From the NCBI GenBank assembly GCA_973895155.1, contig OZ316897.1, positions 14,259,375 to 14,323,374 on the forward strand: a stretch of DNA of 64,000 nt, written 5' to 3'. Position 1 is the first letter of the stretch. Each line of letters starts with the position of its first letter. Of the stretch, positions 8,574 through 64,000 are shown in pieces. Source of the DNA: Marsupella aquatica. Taxonomy: Eukaryota > Plantae > Marchantiophyta. A program made the translations under genes and the position numbers. Under the pieces are notes generated by a model that had not been told where the DNA came from, did not search any database, and worked only from the letters and a program-made list of their open reading frames with translations.

Positions 8574-11500
8574 GAAAATGGGGATTTTCTTTCGAGGGGA
8601 CGAGGTTTGCCTCGTAATCAATGAAGTGGAAGTTGCTTGCGGGACCATCCTCAAGGTTGACCCGGGTGACTCAGACAGTGCGTAATGTTGATTTGGAGTT
8701 CTCATTGAGAAGTGCTATGAGGGATCACGAGAAATTCCTTACCCTTTGCCGCTGATCAGGACCCTGTTTGATGCTGTTGACTCCTGCATTATTTGGGATG
8801 CCTCTTTTGCATATTTGAAGTCACAGTCAACTCCAGCGATAGCACAAATGGATGCCTCTTGTTCTACAAAGGATACGGTTCCCAGTTTTGTACTAGACAA
8901 ATCTTTGGTGGGAAGTTTGGGAGACTCGATTATATCTGGCAATGAAGTCCAGCTCTGGATCGGCAATCAGATTGTGGCTCGTGGATTTGTATTCAAGACG
9001 AATCCCGACGAGACCTGTCACAATGAAAGACTTGGCACTTCTAGGATTAGTGTGAAAATATGTGAAGTTTTTCAAGGAAGCGAGAGGTTACCCTTTCCTC
9101 ACGCTGGAGCCGATACCGTTCAGGAAGCATTGGACACTTTTGTAATCTGGAATTTAAAGGATGTTACTCGGAGACGTTCTTCCCAGGCTATACTTAACGA
9201 CCTGTCCACACGGGATGTTTTTGGAAATTATAATTTCAAGGATTATAGTTTGCGTTCTAATTGGATGCCGAGGAGGTGGAATTGTATGCTGAGGATAATC
9301 GGACCAAAGTGGGGGTTGGCATCATCACAGTTCCTTTCGAGTCAGGTGCAATTGATGATGAGGTTCTTGGGCCAGATCACGTTGGGGTTGCGGTCACACG
9401 CGTGATTGACCCTCTATTTTTCCCAAATATCTCCCCAGGAGTGCCTAGTCTTGTTAGGTGGGCCATCCGTTCACTTCTGCTGATATCAAGGGGTATTTTT
9501 CTTCTGGATCTCATTGAAGAGGTTTCTCCAAAACCAATTATTGATGGTCGAGATCATCTAGAGGTAGATATGAAAGGTGACACTGAGTTTTCAAAGCGGC
9601 CGTATAATTTCATCAAGAGAACAAAGGTTAACCCAGATGAAAAAAGGAAGAAGCACTTGGAGTCTCGGGCGATACTGAAAATCATAGAGGAGGAAATTGA
9701 CTCCATCCAAAGAGAAGGTTGTTGTAAGTTGAAGTGTTGCCTCAACATGCCGAGAAAAGACCTACAGGCGATAAGGAGGGAATACCATGGGATGTCAAGC
9801 GACAACAAAACCAGTCACATTCTCACTCTTTTTGGTTGTAGGGAGAAGGAAGTGGAGACAAAAGGATATTTTGTTGTAAGAAGTAGACTTGTTTGCAAGG
9901 GTGCATTTATTAACATGCATGGATTCAGCTTTGCCAAGTATTATGATTACAAAAATCAATCTGAAGCAGGTTGCACGGTTGGATTCCACGGAAACAAGGG
10001 TTCACACAAGACACGGGGAAACACCTTGCATGCTCGTGCTTTGTTGGAGGCCATTCTAACCCAAAGCGGAGAACCAATGCTGCATCTTCCCTATGGAGGG
10101 TCTCATGGTACTGACACGATTGAGTACAGACTTCCATCTTGTTTCACAAAGAAAAAGATTTTTGAGGAGGTATACTCAAAAATGGAATTAGATGGCTACG
10201 TGAAGGTGAGTGAAAACACTATGTATAAACTCTAGAGTGAGTCCTTCATGAATTTTGACTTTCACAAGGGAAGTGCATTTGCAAAGTGTACACTTTGGAC
10301 TGAGTTCAAAGATCAGTTGATGCGGGAGAAGAGAAAGAAAGAGCGTTTAGAGATTGAGGAAAGAAGAGCTCGCCATCTTCGTGAGCAAATGTCTAGGAGA
10401 TATGTTTACTATGCTCATAGGGTTCTTGTGAAGAAGGATCCTGAGAACTATCTTTGCATTATACATGACAAGATGGACCAAGCCAAGACATGGATCCCTA
10501 GGTTGGTCCCCACTCTTAAATCATTGTCTGGTAGTCGTCAACCGCTCCCCATTGCGCTCATTGGGATGTTGACCCATGGAAGGGATCCCGAAGGGTATGC
10601 TCACTTCAGTTTCACTGGGCTTTGGCCGGGAGATGCAGACTTCACAGTGACATCATTGGCCAAGTGCCTTAGAGATCTGGAGACCTCCTTGAAGGATTAT
10701 ATTGGGCTGCAACGAGGCCAATGTTTCAATCTCTTTTGGACTTTGAAGCATTTCTCGCAGGTTACTTAGAACCCAAAAAAGTCTCAATTGCTAGATTTCA
10801 AGGAGCTGAAGATGACCAAGATCTTGGGTTATCAAATGTGGTGGATGACAACTTTGGTGTTGATCCCAAGGCTACGTCTACCTCTTTCAAACCATTGCCA
10901 AGGTACCTGACCTTGCAAATGGATAATTCAGGGAAAGATAACAAAAACCAGTACGTGATGGCATTTTGCAGTGAGCTTGTTAGTAGAGGGTTTTTTGAAA
11001 CAGTGCAGATGTCGTTTCTCATGGTTGGTCACACCCATGAGGATGTCGATGCATTGTTTTCAAAAGTATCCAACCAAGTGAAGTACAAGGAGGTTTCTAC
11101 CCTCTTGGGGTTGATGGCTGAGGTTTGGGAGTGTGAAAGCATTCATCTTGTCCCACGGTTGATCCAAGAGGTTGCAGCTTACAAAGAGTTTTTGAAAACT
11201 TTCAAGGTAAAAGACATAGAGGGTCACTCAAAACCAATGACATTTCTTTTCTTTATGAGAGATAATGTTCCAATATATCAATACAAAGCACATGTGAAAC
11301 AACCTTGGTACCCTCCAACCGGAAGGTCATTTGGAGAACTGATTCCAACACCAATGCTCTCATTTTACCAGAAGGTCAACCATTTGCAAAACCCATCTCC
11401 GGGGATGTACGAGGCAAGGTTGAAGAAATCATCCCATTCCTTAATCGTTACATTGAGTTTTTGAAGAAGAGTTGTAAGGATGAGACCTCTACAACATATC

Positions 11501-12865: not shown

Positions 12866-13588
12866 ATAGTTATATTCTATTAGTCAGTCAGATTGAATCA
12901 ATGTAAGTAAGTTCTACTTCTTATCCAACATATTTTACATTATTATCACCCAAATATTTTTCTTTAGAATCCAAATTAATATTTCATTTTCTCCAATGTA
13001 CAATCTTGATCCCTCAAATGTACAATATCTGGTGCCCAAATGTACAACTCCCACTGCCCAAATGTACAATTCTTGTGCCCAAATATATATTTTTTGGTGC
13101 CTAAATGTTCAAAGATCAAAGAATTTTCCAGTTTTAATGAATAGACTGATCTCTATCCTCTCAAAGTGATGTGTTGCCACACCTAGGTTCAAAATCTCAA
13201 GCATATCTAGGATCTTCTGACATATGGTTGAAATTAATCACATAAATGGGAACACAGGCCAGGATAGAGGTACTCTCTCATGGCTGCCATTTCTACCAAA
13301 TATGGTAGCTAGAGTTGTGAAAATGGAAGTTGGCTCCCCCTATATGCGTGCTTATGGGCTCATTAAACCCCACCACTAGAGATGCTCTATGGGGATCAGA
13401 TGAGTTTTACAAGCTTTAATGATATATATCATAATTTAAAAAAAAAATTTAAAAAATGATATATATCATAATGCTAAAATAAAAAAACACCAAACTGGGA
13501 CAAGATCCCGAACGCAGTTAAACCTCAACTTCACCCCGCAATTACTGGTCGTTACATGTCCTTTTGCACTTTGCCTCATTGATTAGTC

Positions 13589-13730
13589 TGTCATGCGCAT
13601 ACACATCGCTACACAACATACATCGCTTGTCACACATATTCAAACATAGTCACAATCCACTAACACGAACATAAGAGAATGGAGTACAAATGGAACCAAT
13701 GTCCACATGCCCAAAACCCATAATAGCCCC
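13589..13730. repeat. Terminal repeat module A, copy 1 (142 bp; element 3' end)
   Basis: Matches 14061-14202 and 23388-23529, with 3 mismatches seen. Confidence 0.9.
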
Positions 13731-14058
13731 ATCTTTTCTGGATGAAATCGAACAACGATCAGTGCTAATCCAACAATGATCCCGTCCGACACGATCACAC
13801 ATATATGTCAAGCCCAACGCACCTTGTGCTTCAAGGAATCCACGTTACTTGCACACAACCTGGTTAGCCACACCATAGCCACCAAGCTCATGCTCAAAGG
13901 CTCAACATTGAAAGATGAGGCCTTTGAGCCAACACAAGGGGATAACTATCCCTCACACCAACTCAAACTAAACACAAAGTGCTCATATAGCACACATTCA
14001 AAACCTCTATATCCTAGATAGTACGATATACTTTACTACCACTCTAAATGGTGTGACA
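13731..14058. repeat. Terminal repeat module B, copy 1 (328 bp)
   Basis: Matches 23058-23385 and 32385-32712. Confidence 0.9.
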
Positions 14059-14060
14059 GC

Positions 14061-14202
14061 TGTCGTGCGCATACACATCGCTACACAACATACATCGCTT
14101 GTCACACATATTCAAACATAGTCACAATCCACTAACACGAACATAAGAGAATGGAGTACAAATGGAACCAATGTCCACATGCCCAAAACCCACAATCGCC
14201 CC
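14061..14202. repeat. Module A, copy 2, joined to B1 by a GC dinucleotide
   Basis: ...gtgtgaca GC tgtcgtgcgc... Confidence 0.9.
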
Positions 14203-14369: not shown

Positions 14370-15623
14370 TCACCGACATTGAGGACAAAACCATGATCCA
14401 CTAGGAATCATGTGCAAGGGTGGTGTCAAACACGACATGTGCCATCCTCTAGAACACCTATCACAAATCAACATAGTAGCTGCTTCCTGAGCAGACCCAC
14501 ACAACATACACTTCAAGCTAGCACGAACATGTGCCAAGCTTGGATCCATAGTGCCATCAATGTTTGGAAGGTGACATGGTGCACAATTACGCACGTGATC
14601 CTTCCAAACCATACCATCACGCCCTTCCAACATAAGGACTCCAGAAGGCAACACTTCACGCACACGCAAGATTGTCCGCCCTGCGGTCACATCAAGCGTT
14701 GTTGGTGCTGTCTGCTGCAAATAAACATAATCGCCAGGATGAAATCTCCTAATCTTCGTGCGATAACCTCCTCCACGAATAGTAGCATATCGCAAAGTAT
14801 CACGATGCTGGGCAATAGCAAGGTTGTCAAAGGCCATGGGCATGACTCTCTCAAAAACTCGTGCCCTCTCTGAACAAACCTTTACCCAAATATCTGGATC
14901 ATCCAAATCCACAACAGTTGCAACATCACGACGAATAGCCACTGGCAAATCTGGCTCTCTACCATAGAGCAAGAAATAGGGTGAGAATGATGCAAGTGAT
15001 GCTTGTCGACTGAAACGGTAGCCCATAGCTAACCAAGGTAGTTGGAGATCCCAGTCTCCCAAATGACCAACCTGTAAGCCATACTTGCGCAATCCTCTCT
15101 TCACAATTTGTACAACTCTCTCTGCCAATCCATCTGCCTCAGGATGATCGCGAGAAGTAGTACGATGGTCAATCAGAGCTTGCTCACACAAACCCTCAAA
15201 ATCTCCACGGAATTCCGTGCCCTGATCAGTCAACACCTCAGCTGGTGCTCCAAAGTGACTGAGTACTCGATCCAGAAATGTGGTAGCCACTCCTCCACTA
15301 GCTTTATCTGGCAATGCCACTAGTTCAATCCACTTGGAGAAGTGCTCCACCATAACCAAAACATAACGGTTATGTCGTTGGGTGAGAGGCAATGGACCAG
15401 CAAAGTCCAAACTCCATCTGTACCCCAAACCCATGATTGGCAATGGATGCAACTGGGGAGTGGGAGCATTAAATGATGCCCTCACTCGATCACATACCAC
15501 ACACTTAGCTATCAGTTGCTGGACATGAGTGTGCATACCACGCCACCAATACTGTGTCTGCAGCAAACTATAAGTGCGCTTGACACCAAAATGCCCTAAC
15601 TCCTCATGCGCATGTCGCACCAA
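14370..15623 (-). CDS. Integrase (HHCC + DDE) with C-terminal PHD finger, unit 1
   Basis: HEELGH..CVVC; LDFAG..TDQG..AER; CMLC..CDRC..HMSC..CPQC (C4HC3). Confidence 0.92.
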   Translation of the reverse strand: MVRHAHEELGHFGVKRTYSLLQTQYWWRGMHTHVQQLIAKCVVCDRVRASFNAPTPQLHPLPIMGLGYRWSLDFAGPLPLTQRHNRYVLVMVEHFSKWIELVALPDKASGGVATTFLDRVLSHFGAPAEVLTDQGTEFRGDFEGLCEQALIDHRTTSRDHPEADGLAERVVQIVKRGLRKYGLQVGHLGDWDLQLPWLAMGYRFSRQASLASFSPYFLLYGREPDLPVAIRRDVATVVDLDDPDIWVKVCSERARVFERVMPMAFDNLAIAQHRDTLRYATIRGGGYRTKIRRFHPGDYVYLQQTAPTTLDVTAGRTILRVREVLPSGVLMLEGRDGMVWKDHVRNCAPCHLPNIDGTMDPSLAHVRASLKCMLCGSAQEAATMLICDRCSRGWHMSCLTPPLHMIPSGSWFCPQCR

Positions 15624-15815
15624 ATGTACTCATTGTGATGGTTTTGGTACCACCAATACCTTACCATCACGTAGTACTCTCAAAAGATGGCTTCCTTCCC
15701 ATCGAAACCTCTTGGCTCTCTGTAGAACCCTGTCACGTTCCTTGGCATCAATACTGCCAACAATAGAACCACTGCGCAGATATTCCAACACTTTCACATC
15801 ATTGTGAATATCTTG

Positions 15816-17441
15816 CTATCCAAAAGTTACCTCACCAACATCCACATCTGAAGACTCATCATCTGCTTCATCCAATGAAGTAGAGTCCACAGAACCACTG
15901 CATGCTGGAACCCAACAAAGGAAGGCAGATGCATGCCATCCTGACACCATCTCCTTATCTGACTCATCATGCCATCTGGCTCCAGTCTCATCCTCCTGAC
16001 TGGTACATGGATTGCGGCTCAACCCATCTGCATCCAAATTCACCTTTCCAGGCCTATGCACCACCTGGAAATCATACTCCTGTAACAACAATGCCCATCG
16101 TGCAAGCTTCCCTGTAAGCTTGTCAGACTCCATTAACCACTTGAGAGGCTGATGATCAGTGATCAAAGTGAAAGGATTACCAAACAAGTAACACTGGAAG
16201 TGTGCCACAGCCCACACTGCTGCCAAACACTCTTCCTCATAAGAGCTATACTTAGCCTCTACTAAATTGTTTGATCTACTGGCATATGCCAACTCATGTC
16301 CTTCATCATCTTTCTGAGTCAGCACTGCTCCAAGTCCTACTCCACTCCAATCAGTGTGTAGCTGAAATGGTCTCCCTCAAATGGGTCTTCTCAAAATAGG
16401 GGATGATGCCAATCTTTCTTTCAACTCCTGAAAGGCATGCTCTTGATCATCACCCCAAATCCATTCCTGATCCAACTTAGTGAGTATGGTCAAAGGTTTA
16501 GCAAGCTGGCTAAATCCTTTAACATACCTCCTATAGTAGCTCGCCAATCTGAAGAATGCACGAACTCTACTCACATCAGTAGGACGAGGAATCTGTGTAA
16601 TGGCCTCCACTTTAGTCTGTTGTACACCCAATCCCCCTGGGTATATAGTGTGGCCCAAATACTCAATCTGTTCTTGGAAGAACTTACAATTGCCGGGATG
16701 GAGCTTCAATCCATGTTCCTTCAATCTCTCAAACACAATCTGCAAGTGTCGTTGATGTTCTTCCACAGTAGAAGAATAAACCAAAATATCATCAATATAA
16801 CATCTGACAAAATCCAGACCTGCAAGGATTCAATCCATGACTCTCTGGAACTCAGCTGGTGCATTCTTCAATCCAAATGGTAAGAACAACCACTGATACA
16901 AACGATGCTTGCCATAAGAATCAATTCTCCAGAATGCTGTCTTGGACCTGTCAGAATGTCTGATTGGAAGCTGATGGTACCCTACCCTCAGATCCAATGA
17001 ACTAAAAACCTTTGCATGCCCCACTGCATCAAAGATCTCCTCAGGTGTGGGCATGGCATATCGATCAGATTTTGTCTGACGATTAATAGGTCGGTAATCA
17101 CCACACATACGCCTATCCGTGTAATTACCATGCACATCCTTCTTGGCTGGCATCACTGTGGCAGATGCATACTCCCCGTATGAGATCTCCACCAAACCAG
17201 CCTCCAACAAATCCTGAGTTTTGCTCTGGATCAGAGCTCTTTCCATGTCACTATAACGATATGGTCTACGAAAGATTGGCGCATCACTAGCCAATTCAAT
17301 CTGAATACCAGGGCCCTTCAATGTCCCCAAATCCTTCATGCTGAATGCAAAACAATTCCAATAACTCTTTAGGAATCGATGCATGCGATGTCTCTCCTCC
17401 CCTATCAACTTAGGACCAATCTGTGGCTCCCAACTCTCCAC
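15816..17441 (-). pseudogene. Reverse transcriptase and RNase H, unit 1
   Basis: RMCGDYRPIN, LDLRVGYHQ, LPFGLKNAPAEFQR, CYIDDIL (16782-16802), FQLHTDWS, TDHQPL, DADGLSR. Confidence 0.92.
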
Positions 17442-17663
17442 CAGATCCCTAATATCTTTTTGTAGGGTAGAAGAGATAGCCGATGATTGCTATTTAGCAG
17501 TAGATTGAGCAGTCCCTTCCTGCTCAACAATCTGTCCAGCCTTGGCCAATCCTGCCATAGGTCCATGGATTGCCTGCTCGCCCCCAGCTGTGGTCATCAT
17601 TGTCTTAGTGGACCGCAAGCTCACTAATGGACGATCAGTAACACCAGCAGAGCGCATCCGCAA

Positions 17664-18755
17664 CTATTCAGCTACTCCCAAGCTGATAATCCAAGTCAAG
17701 CAATTCAAATCCATGGCTTGACCAAGGACTTGGCGGCGTGAACTCTCTAACACCGAGGCAACTGCAGTAGTGCCTGTCAACAATCCCATAGCACGCTCTC
17801 TTTCATCAGCAGTAGGCTCCACTAATTGCTGTAGCGTTGTATCCCATACAAGTCCAGGCCCACCTGCTCTAAATGCATATGAAGCAGAATGGCTCACAAA
17901 AGTGGGTAATGCACAACGCGGACGACCAACCAAATTGACCACTGCCAATGGAGATCTGTCAGACTGGGTCACATGTTGTGCACAACGCCCTGGATCCAAA
18001 ATATCATCCACCACCAAGGATGCTGAGCGAGGAATGCTATCAAATGCTCGCTTCAACACTTCACAAGGTAACAAATTAGTCCACCACAAGCGTGGACGAT
18101 GTGCACGAGAACCCACACGTGCAGCATCCAATAATACAGCAGGTCCAATCCAAGATCTGACCTGATGTACACTAGCAACAAGTCGATGACGCTCATCACC
18201 CAATAGTGGCACATTCTCCAAAATGTAGGCAGGGGAATGTGTTTGGTGTAACTGGAGATGACGCAATACCCGTAACATCTCCCAAAACAATGCAGAGCGT
18301 GGATCATGAAGTCCATGTCCAACTCCAGCTCTTGATTGGCCTTGACATGGCCAACCAGCAATCACCAAATCAATGGGGCCAACGGGATCCAAATGATCCG
18401 CCCCCAGCAATGAAATATCAGCCGACAATGCATGCTGATAGCCACGAACAGCATCCACTGGCAACAACTGTGGATAACGGTCTACCAACATAGCCACATG
18501 ACACAATGAGACTCTCCGTGTTGTCTCATCTGTCTCCACATACAAGTATCGACGCACAGGAATTCCTGCCTGAAGAATAGCAGCCAATCCAGTGCTAATT
18601 CCACCAAATAGATCGAGCAAACAAATACCCTCTGGTGGATACTGCCATGCAATAGGAGTGGTATCCAATGGTGAAAGAGTCACTGGTCCACCTGTAGGAG
18701 ATTGCTCTGCTCCTGACTGTGGTGTAAAAGCATGACGCCATGCATCATGTACCAA
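17664..18755 (-). CDS. C5-cytosine DNA methyltransferase domain (DNMT3/DRM-like motif signature), unit 1
   Basis: Motif I DLFGGISTG, II YVETD, IV GWPCQG, VI ENV, VIII HRPRLWWTN, IX ERERAMG, X LGQAMD. Confidence 0.92.
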   Translation of the reverse strand: MVHDAWRHAFTPQSGAEQSPTGGPVTLSPLDTTPIAWQYPPEGICLLDLFGGISTGLAAILQAGIPVRRYLYVETDETTRRVSLCHVAMLVDRYPQLLPVDAVRGYQHALSADISLLGADHLDPVGPIDLVIAGWPCQGQSRAGVGHGLHDPRSALFWEMLRVLRHLQLHQTHSPAYILENVPLLGDERHRLVASVHQVRSWIGPAVLLDAARVGSRAHRPRLWWTNLLPCEVLKRAFDSIPRSASLVVDDILDPGRCAQHVTQSDRSPLAVVNLVGRPRCALPTFVSHSASYAFRAGGPGLVWDTTLQQLVEPTADERERAMGLLTGTTAVASVLESSRRQVLGQAMDLNCLTWIISLGVAE

Positions 18756-18767
18756 TTGTGCTGCCCT

Positions 18768-19820
18768 CTACGGCAAGGCTTGTGCAGTACCCCATACTGG
18801 TGGCACAACACTAGTTGGATTGGGATCATCCCAATCCAGTTTGCTCCTTCGCACCATCTGCTCCTCATGTGACTCCTCCACTGATGGAACATCTGCTGCA
18901 TGTGCATTACCCTCCATCAAATAATCAGGATCAGTGATCACACCACTGAAGGCTGCCAAAGACAATAGTGTGGGTTTAGGGCCTCCCACAGGTCCACTAA
19001 ATTGCACTGGCAACCTGCTCAATCGAGCATCTCCTGACTGCCAATCAGGTCTGTATGACACTGATTCATCCCAAAAATCAAGAATAAATCCCATGGGGTA
19101 CAACACTGTACATCCCACCAACACGTCATAGGACTCGGCCTTAGTCAAAATAGCTCGCGCCTGTATGTGGGAACTATCCTTGGTATGACCCTCCTAAATC
19201 CTCAATTCAAGTGGTCGTCTGGTGATGTGCTGTGTGGGTGTAGGTCCCCCCAATGAAGTCTGAATAGGAAAGGGACACTCGTCCAGATCATCTGGATGCA
19301 ATGCCAATCCTCGTACCGCAGACTTACCCAACATCAAGGGCTGAGCACCAGTATCCAGTAACACTCTCTCTGGCTGGTATATGGCTCCAGTAGGCCCAAC
19401 TAATCGGAAGATACCACTCCGATTATCCAATGACACAACACTAGGTTTAAACCTAGTCCTCTCAAATGCAGGGCGTGCTGGTAAATCCACCAACCTCGCT
19501 GCTGCTGCATGCCAGGTCTCGCTAGTAGCCGTAGGTGGCATGGTCTTCACAGCTTCAACACTGCAAGCTGCTTTTGCATGGGAAGCAACAACTGGAGTGT
19601 CCTCATAGAGTGTAGCTGCCAATCTGAACACTTCTGCAGGACCAACTGCCAAGTTTAGCATGTCTGTAGCTGAAAATAATGGGGTGCGCACTATGGTAGT
19701 AGCCGCCCCCAGCAGGGTACCTGTCATCCCTGCTGCATCACTACCTGATTCTGCCAACTTACCCACGCTAGGGTTTGTCTGAATCGGGTTCATAGAGGCA
19801 GTCTGAACTGTCTCTAACAA
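18768..19820 (-). pseudogene. Aspartic protease region, unit 1
   Basis: VLLDTGAQ ... YDVLVG flap and C-terminal motifs. Confidence 0.8.
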
Positions 19821-19865
19821 TGTAAAAGACTGAGGAAGCTTTGTCTGACGACGTGCATCCCCCCT

Positions 19866-21407
19866 CTATGGATCTAGGTCCACTACTGCTCCTCGGGGCT
19901 CAAGAGCTTTTGCTGCCCCACGCGTCAAAGCTGTTGATGCATCAATGTGTGCAGTGCCACACATGAATCCCATGGTGGCAAGATCTCCATCAACCCCATA
20001 AGATGTGGAAGCTCCATAGGATGTAGAAGCCCCATCACCAGAAGTAGGTCTCACCTGAGAACTAGCCATAGCAGCTAGTTGTTGCTCCAATTGAGCAATC
20101 TTAGCATCCTTAGGATCTGTGGTCACAGTAGGAGCAACCTCACCTCCTTGCCTTGCTACATGTGGCATACCTCGGCCACGATCACCACCTCTACCTCCTC
20201 TTCCCTGATCATGTGTGCGTTGTCCTCCTCTCCGTAACTCGGGATGGAGTGAGAAACACCTATCCTTGGTGTGTCCAGGAGCTCCACAATGATCACACTG
20301 CCGCTGATCAGGTGCTGAGGCCCCTCCTGACCCTCTAGGATCAGGGCAATACCGCTGCGCATGATCCCCACCACAGGTCCAACATCCTGATTGCTGTCCA
20401 GCATAGGAAGGCACAGGTCTCTGACTGGTAGACTCTCGTGCAGTAGGCTTCTCCCTCTGGCTCTTCCGTGCAACAGGCTGTGGTGTGGATGTAGATGCAG
20501 CCTTGGGTGCTTCCTTGGCAAATCCGGAAGTCACCACCTTCTCATTCACCATATTGAGCTCAATTCACTCAGAAAGTGTAAAAACAACTGCCAATGTGGG
20601 ATCTGCATCCCTAAGCAGAGTGACATCTCTCACTCTACGTCGCAATTCTCTATCCAGAATTGCATACCAAAACTGGACTGCTTGAGCCTCTGTCACTCCC
20701 TTGGTGACAGTGATCAATCTGCGCATACGAGTGTATGCCTCACGTAGACTCTCTCCAGTCTTGCGCTGAAACTCCTGGAGACCCTTCAACTTATCAGTCC
20801 TCACACCCTGATAGTTCTGCTTTAATACTTCAAAGAACTCCACCACAGGGTTAAATGTTGGCGTGACTCCAACCCCTGTCACAATCGCACTGGTAGGAGT
20901 AGCGGTGGATGTTGTTGGAGTGGTACTGGTAGATGGTGTGCCACTCTGGCTAGTGCTGCTAGAAGAAGCAACAACTATAGCAATGGGTTGGGCAGCCGCT
21001 CTAGTGCCATAGGTGATGGACACATAATTAGGTGACCAATGCTGCCTCCATGCCTCAATCTCAACCAAATGAGCCTTCTGAAACTCATGGTAATCATCCA
21101 TGGGTGGCCCCTCCAAATGCTGAAATAATCCCTTCCATGCCATGAAAGGGGTAAACAACGTGGCATTACGTAATGACTGCATGTCGCACCACGTATCAAA
21201 CTCCTGGATGAAGTCATCCAGATCAATCGTGCCAACTGCACCAGAGTATCGTCGTGGGCCCTTTGTAGCCCCGTACATCTCTTCCATATCCCACAACAAA
21301 GGTGCAATCACCTGATGACAAGGAGAATTGGTCACAGAGTCCTCGTCAGAATCACTATCTGAAGCTGCACTTGCAACTGCTATCAATGTTGTTGGCCGAA
21401 ATGACAC
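19866..21407 (-). pseudogene. Gag with two zinc knuckles, unit 1
   Basis: FQRKTGESLREAYTRM (MHR-like); CWTCGGDHAQRYC and CDHCGAPGHTKDRC. Confidence 0.85.
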
Positions 21408-21722
21408 CCCACTTCGAGTGAAACCGGTCCTCTGTCCCTCGGACAGTTCCGTAGCACCCGAAGAATCCGTGATGACAAATCTGCCCTAAATCATCACCAT
21501 CACCTTCATAATAGGCTTCACAATGCCCCAAGGTTGTAGCTAAGAATCCATGCAAAATTAATCCAATCTATGCATCTAGATGGATTCAGAAGTATAAAAA
21601 ACCTCCAAATAGCATCTAATTTGGCCCAAAACAGGTCTCTAGACAAACTAATAAGTGTATAAAGGCCCCTGGCCCTTTTAACTTAGACAACAAGTTGTGA
21701 AAACTTGTGTGTACACTACATG

Positions 21723-21782
21723 CCATAAGAACTCCATGGTTAAGCACGCGCAAGAGGAATAGCTTTGGGATGGGTGACCTCC
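21723..21782 (+). promoter_or_regulatory. 5S rRNA-derived internal control region (A-box to C-box), antisense to the element, unit 1
   Basis: CCATAAGAACTCCATGGTTAAGCACGC...GGATGGGTGACCTCC versus plant 5S CCATCAGAACTCCGCAGTTAAGCGTGC...GGATGGGTGACCTCC; about 44/61 identical by hand alignment to a recalled plant 5S sequence. Confidence 0.85.
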
Positions 21783-22033
21783 CCCCTTGGAGTTATGCAC
21801 CAACTTAGGCACTCCAAACCAACCAATTGTCAACTACTCCTCACGTACCAACAAGCTACCTTGCGGCCTGCTCCGGTCTGGCTCCTGTTCCGTCCTCACG
21901 CCCCTCGTCACGAGTCGCCTTGAAACGCGAGATGAGCCTAAGGGAGCCCTTCACACCCGCCACACTTCGCTACGTCGGGATGAACCTCCAATTCAAATCC
22001 ATTCAATAGTCATCCGGACGCCCGGTCCACAAG

Positions 22034-22474
22034 TTGGAGTGGGATGATCCCAGTCCAAGTCCTTCACATCCTCTACACAGGTGAAGTCGCCAAGATACAG
22101 TTGGATTGGGTTGATCCTAATCCAAATCCACTTCAAGGTCCAGATGAGGTCTCTGGACACGCCAACATACAGTTGGATTGAGATGATCCCAATCCAATTT
22201 CACCTTCAAGTCCAAATGGGGTCCGAAGTTACCAATGTATAGTTGGATTGGGATGATCCTAGTCCAAATCCAACTTCGAGTCAAAATGCGGTCTCAAGAG
22301 ACAACCCACAATTGGACTCGGATGATCCCAATCCAAATCCAACTTTGAGTCAAAATGAAGTCTCAAGAGACAACCCACAATTGGACTTGGATGATCCCAA
22401 TCCAAATCCAACTTTGAGTCAAAATGCGGTCTCAAGAGACAACCCACAATTGGACTCAGATGATCCTAGTCCAA
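22034..22474. repeat. Array of seven 25-bp palindromes TTGGATTGGGAT-G-ATCCCAATCCAA, period 67-72 bp, unit 1
   Basis: Copies at 22034, 22101, 22173, 22243, 22312, 22381 and 22450. Confidence 0.9.
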
Positions 22475-23057
22475 AACAAGGCGCGCCACAAAACACGCCG
22501 CAATTCTCGGACCAAAACACTGTTCAACAATATTGTCGTTTTCCTTGTGCCCTAGGTCGCCGCCGCACCTCGTCGCAACGCGGACTCCATCGTGACATCG
22601 ACGACACAATTCACCAACATTTGATTGTCACTTTCTTCGTAAAAGTGTACTATCCATCAACGAATCTCAAATCCGCAATAGCCTTTGCGATGCTGCAACG
22701 CAATCGATAAGGACTAGAACTCCAAAAACACAATGTAGCAACTACCACTTGAGGCGCCTTCTGATCTTCGATCAGTCCCTCATTGCCATAGCTTCGAGAA
22801 GCTCCAAATGTCAATCCGATAATCAACTCCAGAGAGAACTTCAATGAACAAACTATCAGAGAGCTTCAAACAACACCACGCTGTACTCTTAGAGCAATCA
22901 ATAGCTCACAATCTCCAATCTACCAACGGCTGATCTGACTTGAGCTACCACAAGTCAACCAGCAAGATCCCAACAATCCAAGCTACCATGGATCAACTCT
23001 GCAATACAGCAAGCTTCGAAACAGCTTCGAATCAACCTGCAGTGATCTTTCAATGTA

Positions 23058-23529
23058 ATCTTTTCTGGATGAAATCGAACAACGATCAGTGCTAATCCAA
23101 CAATGATCCCGTCCGACACGATCACACATATATGTCAAGCCCAACGCACCTTGTGCTTCAAGGAATCCACGTTACTTGCACACAACCTGGTTAGCCACAC
23201 CATAGCCACCAAGCTCATGCTCAAAGGCTCAACATTGAAAGATGAGGCCTTTGAGCCAACACAAGGGGATAACTATCCCTCACACCAACTCAAACTAAAC
23301 ACAAAGTGCTCATATAGCACACATTCAAAACCTCTATATCCTAGATAGTACGATATACTTTACTACCACTCTAAATGGTGTGACAGCTGTCGTGCGCATA
23401 CACATCGCTACACAACATACATCGCTTGTCACACATATTCAAACATAGTCACAATCCACTAACACGAACATAAGAGAATGGAGTACAAATGGAACCAATG
23501 TCCACATGCCCAAAACCCACAATCGCCCC
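23058..23529. repeat. Module B2 + GC + module A3 (junction between the tandem units)
   Basis: Same as 13731-14202 at +9327. Confidence 0.9.
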
Positions 23530-23696: not shown

Positions 23697-24950
23697 TCAC
23701 CGACATTGAGGACAAAACCATGATCCACTAGGAATCATGTGCAAGGGTGGTGTCAAACACGACATGTGCCATCCTCTAGAACACCTATCACAAATCAACA
23801 TAGTAGCTGCTTCCTGAGCAGACCCACACAACATACACTTCAAGCTAGCACGAACATGTGCCAAGCTTGGATCCACAGTGCCATCAATGTTTGGAAGGTG
23901 ACATGGTGCACAATTACGCACGTGATCCTTCCAAACCATACCATCACGCCCTTCCAACATAAGGACTCCAGAAGGCAACACTTCACGCACACGCAAGATT
24001 GTCCGCCCTGCGGTCACATCAAGCGTTGTTGGTGCTGTCTGCTGCAAATAAACATAATCGCCAGGATGAAATCTCCTAATCTTCGTGCGATAACCTCCTC
24101 CACGAATAGTAGCATATCGCAAAGTATCACGATGCTGGGCAATAGCAAGGTTGTCAAAGGCCATGGGCATGACTCTCTCAAAAACTCGTGCCCTCTCTGA
24201 ACAAACCTTTACCCAAATATCTGGATCATCCAAATCCACAACAGTTGCAACATCACGACGAATAGCCACTGGCAAATCTGGCTCTCTACCATAGAGCAAG
24301 AAATAGGGTGAGAATGATGCAAGTGATGCTTGTCGACTGAAACGGTAGCCCATAGCTAACCAAGGTAGTTGGAGATCCCAGTCTCCCAAATGACCAACCT
24401 GTAAGCCATACTTGCGCAATCCTCTCTTCACAATTTGTACAACTCTCTCTGCCAATCCATCTGCCTCAGGATGATCGCGAGAAGTAGTACGATGGTCAAT
24501 CAGAGCTTGCTCACACAAACCCTCAAAATCTCCACGGAATTCCGTGCCCTGATCAGTCAACACCTCAGCTGGTGCTCCAAAGTGACTGAGTACTCGATCC
24601 AGAAATGTGGTAGCCACTCCTCCACTAGCTTTATCTGGCAATGCCACTAGTTCAATCCACTTGGAGAAGTGCTCCACCATAACCAAAACATAACGGTTAT
24701 GTCGTTGGGTGAGAGGCAATGGACCAGCAAAGTCCAAACTCCATCTGTACCCCAAACCCATGATTGGCAATGGATGCAACTGGGGAGTGGGAGCATTAAA
24801 TGATGCCCTCACTCGATCACATACCACACACTTAGCTATCAGTTGCTGGACATGAGTGTGCATACCACGCCACCAATACTGTGTCTGCAGCAAACTATAA
24901 GTGCGCTTGACACCAAAATGCCCTAACTCCTCATGCGCATGTCGCACCAA
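23697..24950 (-). CDS. Integrase with C-terminal PHD finger, unit 2
   Basis: As unit 1. Confidence 0.92.
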   Translation of the reverse strand: MVRHAHEELGHFGVKRTYSLLQTQYWWRGMHTHVQQLIAKCVVCDRVRASFNAPTPQLHPLPIMGLGYRWSLDFAGPLPLTQRHNRYVLVMVEHFSKWIELVALPDKASGGVATTFLDRVLSHFGAPAEVLTDQGTEFRGDFEGLCEQALIDHRTTSRDHPEADGLAERVVQIVKRGLRKYGLQVGHLGDWDLQLPWLAMGYRFSRQASLASFSPYFLLYGREPDLPVAIRRDVATVVDLDDPDIWVKVCSERARVFERVMPMAFDNLAIAQHRDTLRYATIRGGGYRTKIRRFHPGDYVYLQQTAPTTLDVTAGRTILRVREVLPSGVLMLEGRDGMVWKDHVRNCAPCHLPNIDGTVDPSLAHVRASLKCMLCGSAQEAATMLICDRCSRGWHMSCLTPPLHMIPSGSWFCPQCR

Positions 24951-26990
24951 ATGTACTCATTGTGATGGTTTTGGTACCACCAATACCTTACCATCACGTA
25001 GTACTCTCAAAAGATGGCTTCCTTCCCATCGAAACCTCTTGGCTCTCTGTAGAACCCTGTCACGTTCCTTGGCATCAATACTGCCAACAATAGAACCACT
25101 GCGCAGATATTCCAACACTTTCACATCATTGTGAATATCTTGCTATCCAAAAGTTACCTCACCAACATCCACATCTGAAGACTCATCATCTGCTTCATCC
25201 AATGAAGTAGAGTCCACAGAACCACTGCATGCTGGAACCCAACAAAGGAAGGCAGATGCATGCCATCCTGACACCATCTCCTTATCTGACTCATCATGCC
25301 ATCTGGCTCCAGTCTCATCCTCCTGACTGGTACATGGATTGCGGCTCAACCCATCTGCATCCAAATTCACCTTTCCAGGCCTATGCACCACCTGGAAATC
25401 ATACTCCTGTAACAACAATGCCCATCGTGCAAGCTTCCCTGTAAGCTTGTCAGACTCCATTAACCACTTGAGAGGCTGATGATCAGTGATCAAAGTGAAA
25501 GGATTACCAAACAAGTAACACTGGAAGTGTGCCACAGCCCACACTGCTGCCAAACACTCTTCCTCATAAGAGCTATACTTAGCCTCTACTAAATTGTTTG
25601 ATCTACTGGCATATGCCAACTCATGTCCTTCATCATCTTTCTGAGTCAGCACTGCTCCAAGTCCTACTCCACTCCAATCAGTGTGTAGCTGAAATGGTCT
25701 CCCTCAAATGGGTCTTCTCAAAATAGGGGATGATGCCAATCTTTCTTTCAACTCCTGAAAGGCATGCTCTTGATCATCACCCCAAATCCATTCCTGATCC
25801 AACTTAGTGAGTATGGTCAAAGGTTTAGCAAGCTGGCTAAATCCTTTAACATACCTCCTATAGTAGCTCGCCAATCTGAAGAATGCACGAACTCTACTCA
25901 CATCAGTAGGACGAGGAATCTGTGTAATGGCCTCCACTTTAGTCTGTTGTACACCCAATCCCCCTGGGTATATAGTGTGGCCCAAATACTCAATCTGTTC
26001 TTGGAAGAACTTACAATTGCCGGGATGGAGCTTCAATCCATGTTCCTTCAATCTCTCAAACACAATCTGCAAGTGTCGTTGATGTTCTTCCACAGTAGAA
26101 GAATAAACCAAAATATCATCAATATAACATCTGACAAAATCCAGACCTGCAAGGATTCAATCCATGACTCTCTGGAACTCAGCTGGTGCATTCTTCAATC
26201 CAAATGGTAAGAACAACCACTGATACAAACGATGCTTGCCATAAGAATCAATTCTCCAGAATGCTGTCTTGGACCTGTCAGAATGTCTGATTGGAAGCTG
26301 ATGGTACCCTACCCTCAGATCCAATGAACTAAAAACCTTTGCATGCCCCACTGCATCAAAGATCTCCTCAGGTGTGGGCATGGCATATCGATCAGATTTT
26401 GTCTGACGATTAATAGGTCGGTAATCACCACACATACGCCTATCCGTGTAATTACCATGCACATCCTTCTTGGCTGGCATCACTGTGGCAGATGCATACT
26501 CCCCGTATGAGATCTCCACCAAACCAGCCTCCAACAAATCCTGAGTTTTGCTCTGGATCAGAGCTCTTTCCATGTCACTATAACGATATGGTCTACGAAA
26601 GATTGGCGCATCACTAGCCAATTCAATCTGAATACCAGGGCCCTTCAATGTCCCCAAATCCTTCATGCTGAATGCAAAACAATTCCAATAACTCTTTAGG
26701 AATCGATGCATGCGATGTCTCTCCTCCCCTATCAACTTAGGACCAATCTGTGGCTCCCAACTCTCCACCAGATCCCTAATATCTTTTTGTAGGGTAGAAG
26801 AGATAGCCGATGATTGCTATTTAGCAGTAGATTGAGCAGTCCCTTCCTGCTCAACAATCTGTCCAGCCTTGGCCAATCCTGCCATAGGTCCATGGATTGC
26901 CTGCTCGCCCCCAGCTGTGGTCATCATTGTCTTAGTGGACCGCAAGCTCACTAATGGACGATCAGTAACACCAGCAGAGCGCATCCGCAA

Positions 26991-28082
26991 CTATTCAGCT
27001 ACTCCCAAGCTGATAATCCAAGTCAAGCAATTCAAATCCATGGCTTGACCAAGGACTTGGCGGCGTGAACTCTCTAACACCGAGGCAACTGCAGTAGTGC
27101 CTGTCAACAATCCCATAGCACGCTCTCTTTCATCAGCAGTAGGCTCCACTAATTGCTGTAGCGTTGTATCCCATACAAGTCCAGGCCCACCTGCTCTAAA
27201 TGCATATGAAGCAGAATGGCTCACAAAAGTGGGTAATGCACAACGCGGACGACCAACCAAATTGACCACTGCCAATGGAGATCTGTCAGACTGGGTCACA
27301 TGTTGTGCACAACGCCCTGGATCCAAAATATCATCCACCACCAAGGATGCTGAGCGAGGAATGCTATCAAATGCTCGCTTCAACACTTCACAAGGTAACA
27401 AATTAGTCCACCACAAGCGTGGACGATGTGCACGAGAACCCACACGTGCAGCATCCAATAATACAGCAGGTCCAATCCAAGATCTGACCTGATGTACACT
27501 AGCAACAAGTCGATGACGCTCATCACCCAATAGTGGCACATTCTCCAAAATGTAGGCAGGGGAATGTGTTTGGTGTAACTGGAGATGACGCAATACCCGT
27601 AACATCTCCCAAAACAATGCAGAGCGTGGATCATGAAGTCCATGTCCAACTCCAGCTCTTGATTGGCCTTGACATGGCCAACCAGCAATCACCAAATCAA
27701 TGGGGCCAACGGGATCCAAATGATCCGCCCCCAGCAATGAAATATCAGCCGACAATGCATGCTGATAGCCACGAACAGCATCCACTGGCAACAACTGTGG
27801 ATAACGGTCTACCAACATAGCCACATGACACAATGAGACTCTCCGTGTTGTCTCATCTGTCTCCACATACAAGTATCGACGCACAGGAATTCCTGCCTGA
27901 AGAATAGCAGCCAATCCAGTGCTAATTCCACCAAATAGATCGAGCAAACAAATACCCTCTGGTGGATACTGCCATGCAATAGGAGTGGTATCCAATGGTG
28001 AAAGAGTCACTGGTCCACCTGTAAGAGATTGCTCTGCTCCTGACTGTGGTGTAAAAGCATGACGCCATGCATCATGTACCAA
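26991..28082 (-). CDS. C5-cytosine DNA methyltransferase domain, unit 2
   Basis: As unit 1; PCQ, ENV and RxR motifs intact. Confidence 0.92.
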   Translation of the reverse strand: MVHDAWRHAFTPQSGAEQSLTGGPVTLSPLDTTPIAWQYPPEGICLLDLFGGISTGLAAILQAGIPVRRYLYVETDETTRRVSLCHVAMLVDRYPQLLPVDAVRGYQHALSADISLLGADHLDPVGPIDLVIAGWPCQGQSRAGVGHGLHDPRSALFWEMLRVLRHLQLHQTHSPAYILENVPLLGDERHRLVASVHQVRSWIGPAVLLDAARVGSRAHRPRLWWTNLLPCEVLKRAFDSIPRSASLVVDDILDPGRCAQHVTQSDRSPLAVVNLVGRPRCALPTFVSHSASYAFRAGGPGLVWDTTLQQLVEPTADERERAMGLLTGTTAVASVLESSRRQVLGQAMDLNCLTWIISLGVAE

Positions 28083-31049
28083 TTGTGCTGCCCTCTACGG
28101 CAAGGCTTGTGCAGTACCCCATACTGGTGGCACAACACTAGTTGGATTGGGATCATCCCAATCCAGTTTGCTCCTTCGCACCATCTGCTCCTCATGTGAC
28201 TCCTCCACTGATGGAACATCTGCTGCATGTGCATTACCCTCCATCAAATAATCAGGATCAGTGATCACACCACTGAAGGCTGCCAAAGACAATAGTGTGG
28301 GTTTAGGGCCTCCCACAGGTCCACTAAATTGCACTGGCAACCTGCTCAATCGAGCATCTCCTGACTGCCAATCAGGTCTGTATGACACTGATTCATCCCA
28401 AAAATCAAGAATAAATCCCATGGGGTACAACACTGTACATCCCACCAACACGTCATAGGACTCGGCCTTAGTCAAAATAGCTCGCGCCTGTATGTGGGAG
28501 CTATCCTTGGTATGACCCTCCTAAATCCTCAATTCAAGTGGTCGTCTGGTGATGTGCTGTGTGGGTGTAGGTCCCCCCAATGAAGTCTGAATAGGAAAGG
28601 GACACTCGTCCAGATCATCTGGATGCAATGCCAATCCTCGTACCGCAGACTTACCCAACATCAAGGGCTGAGCACCAGTATCCAGTAACACTCTCTCTGG
28701 CTGGTATATGGCTCCAGTAGGCCCAACTAATCGGAAGATACCACTCCGATTATCCAATGACACAACACTAGGTTTAAACTTAGTCCTCTCAAATGCAGGG
28801 CGTGCTGGTAAATCCACCAACCTCGCTGCTGCTGCATGCCAGGTCTCGCTAGTAGCCGTAGGTGGCATGGTCTTCACAGCTTCAACACTGCAAGCTGCTT
28901 TTGCATGGGAAGCAACAACTGGAGTGTCCTCATAGAGTGTAGCTGCCAATCTGAACACTTCTGCAGGACCAACTGCCAAGTTTAGCATGTCTGTAGCTGA
29001 AAATAATGGGGTGCGCACTATGGTAGTAGCCGCCCCCAGCAGGGTACCTGTCATCCCTGCTGCATCACTACCTGATTCTGCCAACTTACCCACGCTAGGG
29101 TTTGTCTGAATCGGGTTCATAGAGGCAGTCTGAACTGTCTCTAACAATGTAAAAGACTGAGGAAGCTTTGTCTGACGACGTGCATCCCCCCTCTATGGAT
29201 CTAGGTCCACTACTGCTCCTCGGGGCTCAAGAGCTTTTGCTGCCCCACGCGTCAAAGCTGTTGATGCATCAATGTGTGCAGTGCCACACATGAATCCCAT
29301 GGTGGCAAGATCTTCATCAACCCCATAAGATGTGGAAGCTCCATAGGATGTAGAAGCCCCATCACCAGAAGTAGGTCTCACCTGAGAACTAGCCATAGCA
29401 GCTAGTTGTTGCTCCAATTGAGCAATCTTAGCATCCTTAGGATCTGTGGTCACAGTAGGAGCAACCTCACCTCCTTGCCTTGCTACATGTGGCATACCTC
29501 GGCCACGATCACCACCTCTACCTCCTCTTCCCTGATCATGTGTGCGTTGTCCTCCTCTCCGTAACTCGGGATGGAGTGAGAAACACCTATCCTTGGTGTG
29601 TCCAGGAGCTCCACAATGATCACACTGCCGCTGATCAGGTGCTGAGGCCCCTCCTGACCCTCTAGGATCAGGGCAATACCGCTGCGCATGATCCCCACCA
29701 CAGGTCCAACATCCTGATTGCTGTCCAGCATAGGAAGGCACAGGTCTCTGACTGGTAGACTCTCGTGCAGTAGGCTTCTCCCTCTGGCTCTTCCGTGCAA
29801 CAGGCTGTGGTGTGGATGTAGATGCAGCCTTGGGTGCTTCCTTGGCAAATCCGGAAGTCACCACCTTCTCATTCACCATATTGAGCTCAATTCACTCAGA
29901 AAGTGTAAAAACAACTGCCAATGTGGGATCTGCATCCCTAAGCAGAGTGACATCTCTCACTCTACGTCGCAATTCTCTATCCAGAATTGCATACCAAAAC
30001 TGGACTGCTTGAGCCTCTGTCACTCCCTTGGTGACAGTGATCAATCTGCGCATACGAGTGTATGCCTCACGTAGACTCTCTCCAGTCTTGCGCTGAAACT
30101 CCTGGAGACCCTTCAACTTATCAGTCCTCACACCCTGATAGTTCTGCTTTAATACTTCAAAGAACTCCACCACAGGGTTAAATGTTGGCGTGACTCCAAC
30201 CCCTGTCACAATCGCACTGGTAGGAGTAGCGGTGGATGTTGTTGGAGTGGTACTGGTAGATGGTGTGCCACTCTGGCTAGTGCTGCTAGAAGAAGCAACA
30301 ACTATAGCAATGGGTTGGGCAGCCGCTCTAGTGCCATAGGTGATGGACACATAATTAGGTGACCAATGCTGCCTCCATGCCTCAATCTCAACCAAATGAG
30401 CCTTCTGAAACTCATGGTAATCATCCATGGGTGGCCCCTCCAAATGCTGAAATAATCCCTTCCATGCCATGAAAGGGGTAAACAACGTGGCATTACGTAA
30501 TGACTGCATGTCGCACCACGTATCAAACTCCTGGATGAAGTCATCCAGATCAATCGTGCCAACTGCACCAGAGTATCGTCGTGGGCCCTTTGTAGCCCCG
30601 TACATCTCTTCCATATCCCACAACAAAGGTGCAATCACCTGATGACAAGGAGAATTGGTCACAGAGTCCTCGTCAGAATCACTATCTGAAGCTGCACTTG
30701 CAACTGCTATCAATGTTGTTGGCCGAAATGACACCCCACTTCGAGTGAAACCGGTCCTCTGTCCCTCGGACAGTTCCGTAGCACCCGAAGAATCCGTGAT
30801 GACAAATCTGCCCTAAATCATCACCATCACCTTCATAATAGGCTTCACAATGCCCCAAGGTTGTAGCTAAGAATCCATGCAAAATTAATCCAATCTATGC
30901 ATCTAGATGGATTCAGAAGTATAAAAAACCTCCAAATAGCATCTAATTTGGCCCAAAACAGGTCTCTAGACAAACTAATAAGTGTATAAAGGCCCCTGGC
31001 CCTTTTAACTTAGACAACAAGTTGTGAAAACTTGTGTGTACACTACATG

Positions 31050-31801: not shown

Positions 31802-32384
31802 AACAAGGCGCGCCACAAAACACGCCGCAATTCTCGGACCAAAACACTGTTCAACAATATTGTCGTTTTCCTTGTGCCCTAGGTCGCCGCCGCACCTCGT
31901 CGCAACGCGGACTCCATCGTGACATCGACGACACAATTCACCAACATTTGATTGTCACTTTCTTCGTAAAAGTGTACTATCCATCAACGAATCTCAAATC
32001 CGCAATAGCCTTTGCGATGCTGCAACGCAATCGATAAGGACTAGAACTCCAAAAACACAATGTAGCAACTACCACTTGAGGCGCCTTCTGATCTTCGATC
32101 AGTCCCTCATTGCCATAGCTTCGAGAAGCTCCAAATGTCAATCCGATAATCAACTCCAGAGAGAACTTCAATGAACAAACTATCAGAGAGCTTCAAACAA
32201 CACCACGCTGTACTCTTAGAGCAATCAATAGCTCACAATCTCCAATCTACCAACGGCTGATCTGACTTGAGCTACCACAAGTCAACCAGCAAGATCCCAA
32301 CAATCCAAGCTACCATGGATCAACTCTGCAATACAGCAAGCTTCGAAACAGCTTCGAATCAACCTGCAGTGATCTTTCAATGTA

Positions 32385-32712
32385 ATCTTTTCTGGATGAA
32401 ATCGAACAACGATCAGTGCTAATCCAACAACGATCCCGTCCGACACGATCACACATATATGTCAAGCCCAACGCACCTTGTGCTTCAAGGAATCCACGTT
32501 ACTTGCACACAACCTGGTCAGCCACACCATAGCCACCAAGCTCATGCTCAAAGGCTCAACATTGAAAGATGAGGCCTTTGAGCCAACACAAGGGGATAAC
32601 TATCCCTCACACCAACTCAAACTAAACACAAAGTGCTCATATAGCACACATTCAAAACCTCTATATCCTAGATAGTACGATATACTTTACTACCACTCTA
32701 AATGGTGTGACA
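32385..32712. repeat. Module B3 (element 5' end)
   Basis: Matches B1 and B2 except C at 32431 and 32519; followed by TSD AGTC. Confidence 0.9.
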
Positions 32713-34279
32713 AGTCCATTAACCATTTGACTAATGGGTGGGCTTCTTTCTCCCTCTCTTTTTCTAACCCTACGACTTTGGCCAATGCTCAACAACGTCC
32801 AAATGATTTTTTTTCCATTTCTTTGGCACATTGGACTCAGATCCATAGTTCAATAGGCTGGAGCCTAATCAAGAAACAAAAACTGCATGTTCTTCCTGCT
32901 GTCAGCATTCATTCTTCAGATTGTGACCTTGTTAGGCCCAATTGTCTCACTGATCTACCAAGTTGGTAATCAATTCCTTTTGCACTTTAATTGTGGAGTA
33001 GTTTGGAAACCGATATCCGCAATAGGAACACTAATTCCATAATCACTCCATTTTTATTTTATTTTAATAAATTGGATTCATAGCGGGATTCATAGATAAT
33101 CAGGTAGGGGTCAAAAACTAATCAAGCCGGGGAACAAAAGAAAGTGGGGAGGCCACACCTCTCGGGCCAAAATGACTTCCCCCCCCACCCAAACCAGCAA
33201 ACCTCAATCGGGCCAACAGGTCCAAAAGGGCCAAAGGTCCCTGTAATCCACAAAGGTCCAAAGGGGGAGCTTGTTAACAGATCTAGTCATATTATGGTCG
33301 GTAGTCCTACTGTTCCTGTGTTGCTCACTAGTCGGATGGAACCAAAATTGTCACAATCCCTATCAAGCAATTTACTGTGATACCTCTGGTTTTGTCTGCT
33401 GATAGTGGCCCATTCGTCGCCAATCCAATGACAGTGATAACCGGGTCCGTGGCAGTTCCTACCAAAGGACAAAGACTCTACTCGCTAATGCTGCTGGCCC
33501 TGAAATTGCCCTGATGCACGAAGTTGCTGTAATCACTGGCAAAAAATAAAAAAAGGCACACTCATCAAAACTAGTTGGAATTCAAAGCACAAGGGACCTC
33601 CAGAGTCTCCTAGGGAGCCAGGATAAAATCCAGCTCGTCCGTGCACCGTTTGATTTGCCAAGCTTTCTTTGCCAATCTACTGATGGCTAGCATGGCTTTG
33701 AGGTGGTCGCTAGTTTTCCTCAGGATAACCCAACTTGGCAGAAGACCCAAGTGTAATTACTCCGTTATATATGCTGCAAGTGTATTATGATTAGAGTGTC
33801 ACATTCAAAGCACACAATCTCCAACCAGACCCTATTGCTCACGAGTGATTTGTTCTGCTTACTTCTCAAGGCATTGTGCCTTAGAGCTCTCACCCGGCCG
33901 GTCACCCAGAGTGAGTTAATTTCATTCATCCTTGGGATCAGCAATTGACTGACTTACCTCATTTGTCATTCAATTCTTCGCAAACGCTGCAATTGCAACA
34001 ATCATGATCCTCTTTCTCTGGCTTCTTTGTAAAATTGTCTCAATCAATCTATTCTCTCTTGAAATTCTTGGTCTCAATGTTAAATTGTCACAATCTCTAA
34101 TCTCCACATTCATTCTCACTCATTCACAACGTCTCTCCTTCCTTGCCTTGATATCTTTTCTTGCTTTGACATCTAAACTTTACATTTTTATCTCTTCTGA
34201 ATTTAAATCTTTTCCTTGCCTTGCCATCTTTTTCTCATCTCGTCATCTTTTCTCAGATTCACATCTTTATCTCCACACA

Positions 34280-63891: not shown

Positions 63892-64000
63892 TACAACTGA
63901 CTCTCTGTTCACTTCAACAGTTGAAATACAAACCAGTTAACTGCAAATACGCATGTCTCTCAATCATGGAAGATATCAATAAAATAAATCGGGTTGACAA

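Follow-up and report, generated by a model that had tools for sequence, protein, structure and literature searches.

Introduction

The closest described relative of the element reported here is KnitGypsy-Dnmt3 of the alga Klebsormidium nitens, which, according to the text of de Mendoza et al. (2018; PMC5890265), combines Gypsy domains with DIRS-type A-coding-B-A-B repeats and acquired its DNA methyltransferase (DNMT) in the K. nitens lineage. In the only published test, carried out in yeast, no methylation by the Klebsormidium domain was seen, an outcome that the authors of the test considered inconclusive. The same text describes SymbioDIRS-Dnmt3 of Symbiodinium, an element with a tyrosine recombinase whose enzyme methylates CG in yeast.

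Here we describe an element in a 64,000-nucleotide stretch of the genome of the liverwort Marsupella aquatica (contig OZ316897.1, positions 14,259,375 to 14,323,374; hereafter the window, whose own numbering is used throughout). Like KnitGypsy-Dnmt3 as presented by de Mendoza et al. (2018), it has an unpermuted DNMT3-like domain in a Gypsy Pol, A-coding-B-A-B repeats and purifying selection; unlike it, it has a land plant as host. Judged by its sequence, it belongs to the KnitGypsy-Dnmt3 kind as a land-plant member, and the range of that kind is wider than published. A target-site duplication (TSD), a self-priming site, a palindromic junction, an A-coding-B form and a PHD finger, all reported below, go unmentioned in the text of that paper, although its figures or supplement may already show the TSD or the PHD finger. 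The first-pass annotation of the locus knew of no characterised land-plant example, and a search of the open-licence literature likewise found neither a land-plant or chlorophyte member nor such end anatomy. The reading that we favour, with somewhat more confidence than doubt, is that the window holds a dead tandem dimer of a KnitGypsy-Dnmt3-type element, the intact copies of which likely methylate their own cDNA with this DNMT and integrate by way of an internal junction.

Results and Discussion

A DNMT3-like domain in the Gag-Pol frame

The coding regions and repeats of the element are on the minus strand, in two tandem units. The domain of unit 1 (17667..18680; that of unit 2, 9327 bp further on, is at 26994..28007) matched the Pfam family DNA_methylase (PF00145) with an E value of 3e-11, and its best sequence matches in the PDB were human DNMT3A/B/C (E 2e-11). 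The AlphaFold model of the domain, made with a 62-row alignment, had a pLDDT of 96.7, and a Foldseek search with this model put DNMT3A/3B on top (E 1.6e-19, TM 0.70 by query). Motifs I (LDLFGG), IV (WPCQ; catalytic Cys codon at 18345-18347), VI (ENV), VIII (HRPR), IX (ERERAMG) and X (LGQAMD) follow each other unpermuted, in the order of DNMT3. These matches and motifs bear out the first-pass annotation, which had placed a C5 cytosine methyltransferase with intact, unpermuted motifs between protease and RT. Identity with a plant DRM was rejected because the circularly permuted motifs are absent; DRM2-type matches in the PDB were weaker (4e-5 or worse) and aligned in a permuted register.

The domain belongs to a single Gag-Pol frame (14370..21287 in unit 1, 23697..30614 in unit 2) that runs, with no frameshift, through a Gag with zinc knuckles, protease (about 18990-19460), DNMT, RT (about 16560-17300), RNase H (about 16000-16559), a DDE integrase (rve; about 14560-15629) and a C-terminal PHD finger (14373-14519). 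No other ORF of at least 200 aa was found within the element. That the DNMT shares a frame with Gag, protease, RT and integrase had been noted before and stands; what had been overlooked is that this frame holds 10 in-frame stops in about 2305 codons, all TAG or TGA, and the same 10 in both units. TAG codons at 18770 and 17666 bracket the unit 1 domain, the stop-to-stop frame around it being 17664-18767. With 10 stops the window copy is unable to make the polyprotein: it is dead. The earlier description of the DNMT as an integral Pol domain holds for the family, in which relatives such as P0060 and P0201 are stop-free with the order protease-DNMT-RT-RNase H-integrase, but not for the broken window copy. 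Stops occupy 10 of 237 at-risk sites (about 4%), which looks high against the repeat divergence (5 of 471 bases), the counts being small; the parent may have been mobilised in trans, or the repeats may have been homogenised.

SymbioDIRS-Dnmt3 also has a DNMT3-type domain in Pol, two domain orders and the A-coding-B-A-B layout, but with a tyrosine recombinase in place of the rve integrase, TG/CA ends and 4-bp TSDs of the window element (PMC5890265). Membership in DIRS, Ngaro or PAT was rejected, since the element has an rve integrase and no tyrosine recombinase; no member of the recombinase family was found in the 11 relatives scanned.

Distribution, selection and descent of the domain

Relatives of the domain were found in Marchantia, Calypogeia, Riccia, Sphagnum, Closterium, Mesostigma, K. 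nitens and Scenedesmus, that is, in bryophytes and three algal genera besides Klebsormidium, whereas the text of de Mendoza et al. (2018) places the acquisition in the K. nitens lineage. The K. nitens protein GAQ93235.1 is 37% identical to the domain over 328 columns, against 22-26% for animal DNMT3, and has the order zinc knuckle, protease, DNMT. From its species and domain order we infer that it is a KnitGypsy-Dnmt3 copy, and its homology and protease-DNMT order substantiate the link to Klebsormidium elements drawn in the first-pass annotation. After clustering at 50%, 237 proteins score below 1e-30. Of 30 proteins consulted for their source species, 4 had one assigned; most are metagenome products. 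These protein matches, like the 80 metagenome loci used below, were all found with the DNMT domain; the mapping of public contigs covered the whole element, and the contigs cover the DNMT domain as they cover RT. The viral contigs searched contained no relative.

The place of the DNMT was looked up in 197 proteins: it lies after the protease or before RT in 59, after RNase H or before the integrase in 86, and 52 are too short to tell. The second order goes beyond KnitGypsy-Dnmt3 as given in the text of PMC5890265. The RNase H-DNMT-integrase clade is large (P0112 and 85 others), and its one species-assigned member that was checked comes from Scenedesmus.

In a set of 161 homologous domains, all with at least 280 residues, the catalytic Cys is retained by 160, the Glu by 161 and each of the two motif VIII Arg by 159; the catalytic residues are thus nearly invariant while domain identity is 35-40%. 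The Pro before the catalytic Cys is present in only 80 of the 161, and motif IV reads EC rather than PC in 72. Between the window and 25 loci, picked as close and long from the 80, median dN/dS was 0.105 for the DNMT, 0.074 for RT and 0.275 for the linker, values that are rough because dS approaches saturation. When the dead metagenome copies were compared with each other, the ratios were about 0.59, 0.48 and 0.87, respectively. The window DNMT value of about 0.105, taken between subfamilies with dS near saturation, is lower than the Ka/Ks of 0.2 used as the criterion for the KnitGypsy-Dnmt3 kind. Neutral evolution, which by the first-pass annotation would count against its claim, is not borne out by the near-invariant catalytic residues and this dN/dS, so the DNMT domain is under selection.

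Trees of RT-RNase H and of the DNMT, each of 55 sequences, agree in most strong splits (15 of 20 from RT-RNase H recur in the DNMT tree; in the reverse direction, 14 of 18), and the two domain orders separate in both (support 1.0 and 0.998): the DNMT has descended together with RT. In a 38-row DNMT tree, whose only outgroup was a bee DNMT3, the window groups with bryophyte sequences (100/100); the backbone is without resolution, and Klebsormidium is not sister to the bryophytes. The simplest reading of these trees, from which host plant DNMT3 is absent, would be a single capture long ago, after which the domain changed its place in Pol. Taken together, the wide range of relatives, the near-invariant residues, the dN/dS of about 0.1 and the DNMT tree that tracks the RT tree indicate, at the level of sequence, one old green-plant lineage and not a Klebsormidium oddity.

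A dead copy whose two units are 99.9% identical might instead suggest that a single liverwort element recently and incidentally captured a host DNMT3 gene, or that the assembly is in error. However, the same fusion occurs in liverworts, mosses, streptophyte algae and a chlorophyte, the DNMT and RT trees are congruent, and none of the 51 domain matches is a host plant DNMT3. As to an artefact, all differences between the two units are transitions, a single TSD serves both, and public contigs cover the domain as they do RT. We consider this explanation largely refuted and its probability very small. The old lineage that we prefer takes DNMT-carrying Gypsy elements from one alga to a range across green plants, including Marchantia polymorpha. 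Given the genetics and methylation mutants of M. polymorpha, the question posed in 2018, what purpose a retrotransposon's DNMT serves, becomes directly testable. The DNMT domains of such elements are catalogued as hypothetical or methyltransferase genes.

Possible role of the DNMT

If Pol is packaged and cleaved, the enzyme would meet the new cDNA, and in intact copies it would most likely methylate this cDNA at CG, by analogy with the DNMT3-type SymbioDIRS enzymes. The observed/expected ratio of CG in the window element is 0.38 in the coding region and 0.54 and 0.60 in the flanks, a stronger depletion in the coding region. It is conceivable, although we think it rather unlikely, that the domain serves as a DNA-binding or base-flipping module, or that it methylates the target site or the host genome and not the cDNA. 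The inactivity of the Klebsormidium domain in yeast (PMC5890265) would fit such a role, as would the occurrence of the domain at two positions in Pol and the PHD finger on the integrase, which points to chromatin-level targeting. On the other hand, a catalytic Cys, Glu and Arg pair that are nearly invariant at 35-40% identity argue for catalysis over mere binding, and the stronger CG depletion of the coding region speaks against a role away from the cDNA, although host methylation can explain the same depletion.

Split repeats, dimer structure and target-site duplication

Read on the minus strand, the layout of the element is A-coding-B-A-coding-B-A-B, with A of 328 bp and B of 142 bp. It starts with the TGTCA of the 5′ A (32385..32712). 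Unit 2 is closed by a B with a G-run before it (23388..23529), which meets the A common to both units (23058..23385) at a B|A junction (23386-23387); unit 1 is closed by a B that follows a polypurine-tract-like G-run (14061..14202), and then come the 3′ A (13731..14058) and the terminal B (13589..13730), which ends in TGACA. The whole element, 19.1 kb from TGTCA to TGACA, is flanked by one 4-bp duplication (left copy 13585..13588, right copy 32713..32716). Units 1 and 2, 9327 bp apart, show 7 differences in 9655 bp, all transitions. The inner repeats of the dimer show no differences, whereas the outer A differs by 2 bases and the outer B by 3. We therefore regard unequal crossing-over between A repeats, at a later time, as the most likely origin of the dimer. 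Each unit also has, in its 5′ untranslated part, an array of about five repeats of 69-72 bp (22088-22544 and 31415-31871). Coverage by public contigs is much lower over 21444-23400 than over the coding region, so this 5′ part is perhaps subfamily-specific.

The layout recurs in a second subfamily, represented by metagenome loci with about 70% protein identity; A-coding-B-A-B repeats are present in the window dimer, in L050 and in L054/L059. All seven rows with both ends have a 4-bp TSD. They come from six independent sites, of which three have the A-coding-B-A-B form and the other three a shorter form, A-coding-B. Counted by distinct loci, the coding region is followed by B and then A in 7 and by B alone in 11. 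At none of 15 5′ ends was B found upstream of A, as it would be in a permuted A-B-A-coding-B form. The B|A junction, CA-NN-TG, is a 10-bp palindrome in the window (14055..14064, with its two-base spacer at 14059-14060), and it is preserved in both subfamilies. The joint of A and the last B is less uniform, differing in 2 of 7 main-type copies: in the window it has 5 more G-run letters than in three contigs of other copies, and in L050 about 19 extra bases. Such variability is as expected of end-joining.

TG..CA ends with a 4-bp TSD are within the canonical LTR criterion (4-6 bp TSD); a canonical LTR layout, in which two complete, identical LTRs form the ends with a PBS behind the first and a PPT ahead of the second, was nevertheless ruled out, as the 5′ end has A only and a B stands between the G-run and the 3′ A. 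Standard LTR finders would miss such elements or set their bounds wrongly. Troyka elements (Kojima, 2025; PMC12440569) share the Gypsy-like domain order and unusual termini; they were rejected as candidates because the text of that paper gives them CG..CG ends, a 3-bp TSD, ordinary LTRs and a distribution in animals only. A 3-bp TSD was seen in 0 of 7 rows of the present family.

Priming signals

A predicted primer-binding site for self-priming (32372..32383, minus strand) begins 1 nt after the 5′ A and is complementary at 12 of 12 positions to 32559-32570 within A, the predicted transcript start. In the second subfamily a different pair of 12-mers occupies the homologous place, fully paired (12/12) in L060; 7 of the 12 primer letters differ between the window and L060 and the pairing is kept, which amounts to covariation. 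Of 15 repeats, 11 retained the anchor used for locating the site, and 9 of these 11 match at 10 or more of 12 positions. The mean match is 10.0 and falls to 2.7-4.1 when the site is slid by 1-3 bases. No TGG of a tRNA-type primer site follows A in the 18 rows inspected. Folding of the RNA of A with 25 flanking bases, a piece that began upstream of the predicted start, left the primer site unpaired. A G-run stands just before B in all 17 rows shown; it is short, and in the metagenome subfamily it ends 3 letters before B.

The text of Neumann et al. (2019; PMC6317226) takes as self-priming a stretch of at least 10 bases, 0-5 nt after the 5′ repeat, that is complementary to the repeat, and the window element has such a stretch, as expected of self-priming of the Tf1/Sushi type. 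Tf1/Sushi and Tcn1 elements likewise have this stretch and no tRNA-type primer site; they differ in having ordinary LTRs and mostly chromodomains (PMC6317226), where the window element combines split repeats with a PHD finger and a DNMT.

Proposed replication and integration cycle

Given a primer site right after A and a G-run right before B, the reverse-transcribed repeat should be B+A, with outer ends that lack TG/CA. It is the two halves of the B|A junction that form the ends bearing the TSD, and the integrase therefore probably cuts that palindrome. Integration is thus likely to proceed by cutting a palindrome inside the terminal repeat rather than at the DNA ends. In the cycle that we propose, the RNA would start inside A and prime itself at the site after A, the plus strand would start at the G-run before B, and the linear cDNA would read B|A-coding-B|A. 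The DDE integrase would ignore the outer ends of this cDNA and cut the palindromic junction after CA on both strands, and the resulting TG and CA ends would be inserted with a 4-bp duplication. If both halves of the left junction were used and the outer ends joined, the product would be A-coding-B-A-B; a circle with one repeat, or cleavage of both junctions, would yield a dead-end A-coding-B, a form that can also originate from B-B recombination. The cycle offers a testable account of DIRS-like split repeats in an element with a DDE integrase.

Palindromic junctions have precedents: the integrases of foamy virus and HIV-1 cut LTR-LTR junctions of this kind (PMC1180852, PMC1905944). Like these, the window element offers a DDE integrase a palindromic CA-spacer-TG junction, predicted here to be cut internally. 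As those sources describe it, the viral junction forms only in circles, whereas the window element encodes it, as its predicted sole attachment site.

A symmetric circle with two repeats is disfavoured, because the permuted form that it predicts was seen at 0 of 15 5′ ends (P about 0.0006 if it were as common as A-coding-B-A-B). The missing permuted form means that the two junctions are treated unlike, and our model needs this asymmetry, which it leaves unexplained. A cycle like that of Ngaro and PAT elements accounts for the absence directly: the RNA would start within A and end within the last B, template jumps would copy the internal B|A and rebuild a circle, the integrase would open the newly made junction, and A-coding-B forms would stem from later B-B recombination. 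The layout A-coding-B-A-B is the same as in the split-repeat DIRS elements of PMC5890265. Left unaccounted for by such a cycle are the covarying self-priming site after A, the G-run before B and the variable A-B joint; moreover, 3′ ends with B alone (11) outnumber B-A-B ends (7), which is many for recombination across a repeat of 114-142 bp. We give this cycle perhaps one chance in five, and prefer integration through the internal junction after self-priming.

A more speculative extension, to which we attach still less credence, is that the palindrome acts as a restriction-like integrase site and that the element's own DNMT methylates the junction CpG to choose between junctions, in the manner of a restriction-modification switch; it would then apply to an ancient green-plant lineage of self-priming Gypsy elements whose attachment sites lie within the repeat. 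The CpG beside the junction is intact in 7 of 7 internal B and 10 of 17 terminal B, a difference that is not significant (P 0.065) and runs opposite to what is expected if the internal junction were more methylated. This pattern of decay does not support methylation by the element's own DNMT as the cause of the asymmetry.

Other features of the window

On the plus strand, broken ORFs at 8692-11464 match DUF7869 (E 1.6e-38) and probably represent a decayed DNA transposon. Upstream of a DUF7869 transposase-like region, interrupted ORFs occupy 1930-5196 on the minus strand; the part at 1933-2907 has a weak match to N6/N4 DNA methylases (E 4.5e-5, below the cut-off), with the motif VLDFFFGG, and Atlas look-alikes at 0.94, while no motif IV was found in the ORFs of 1930-5196. 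The region may encode an adenine or N4-cytosine methyltransferase carried by a transposon. Inverted repeats of about 200 bp (40254-40451 and 59986-60184), 83-85% alike and 19.5 kb apart, are probably two copies of a small element.

A peroxisomal-type 3-ketoacyl-CoA thiolase is encoded on the minus strand at 56001-57425 by one uninterrupted ORF. Its identity is 90% with Calypogeia fissa, 79% with Marchantia, 77% with Riccia and 70% with Sphagnum, which places the host among the liverworts, probably the leafy ones. In flowering plants the orthologous genes have many introns; the gene in the window may be a retrogene or may have lost its introns. An mTERF gene (52851-54149, plus strand) and an F-box/Kelch gene (62665-63936, minus strand), each a single ORF, appear ordinary.
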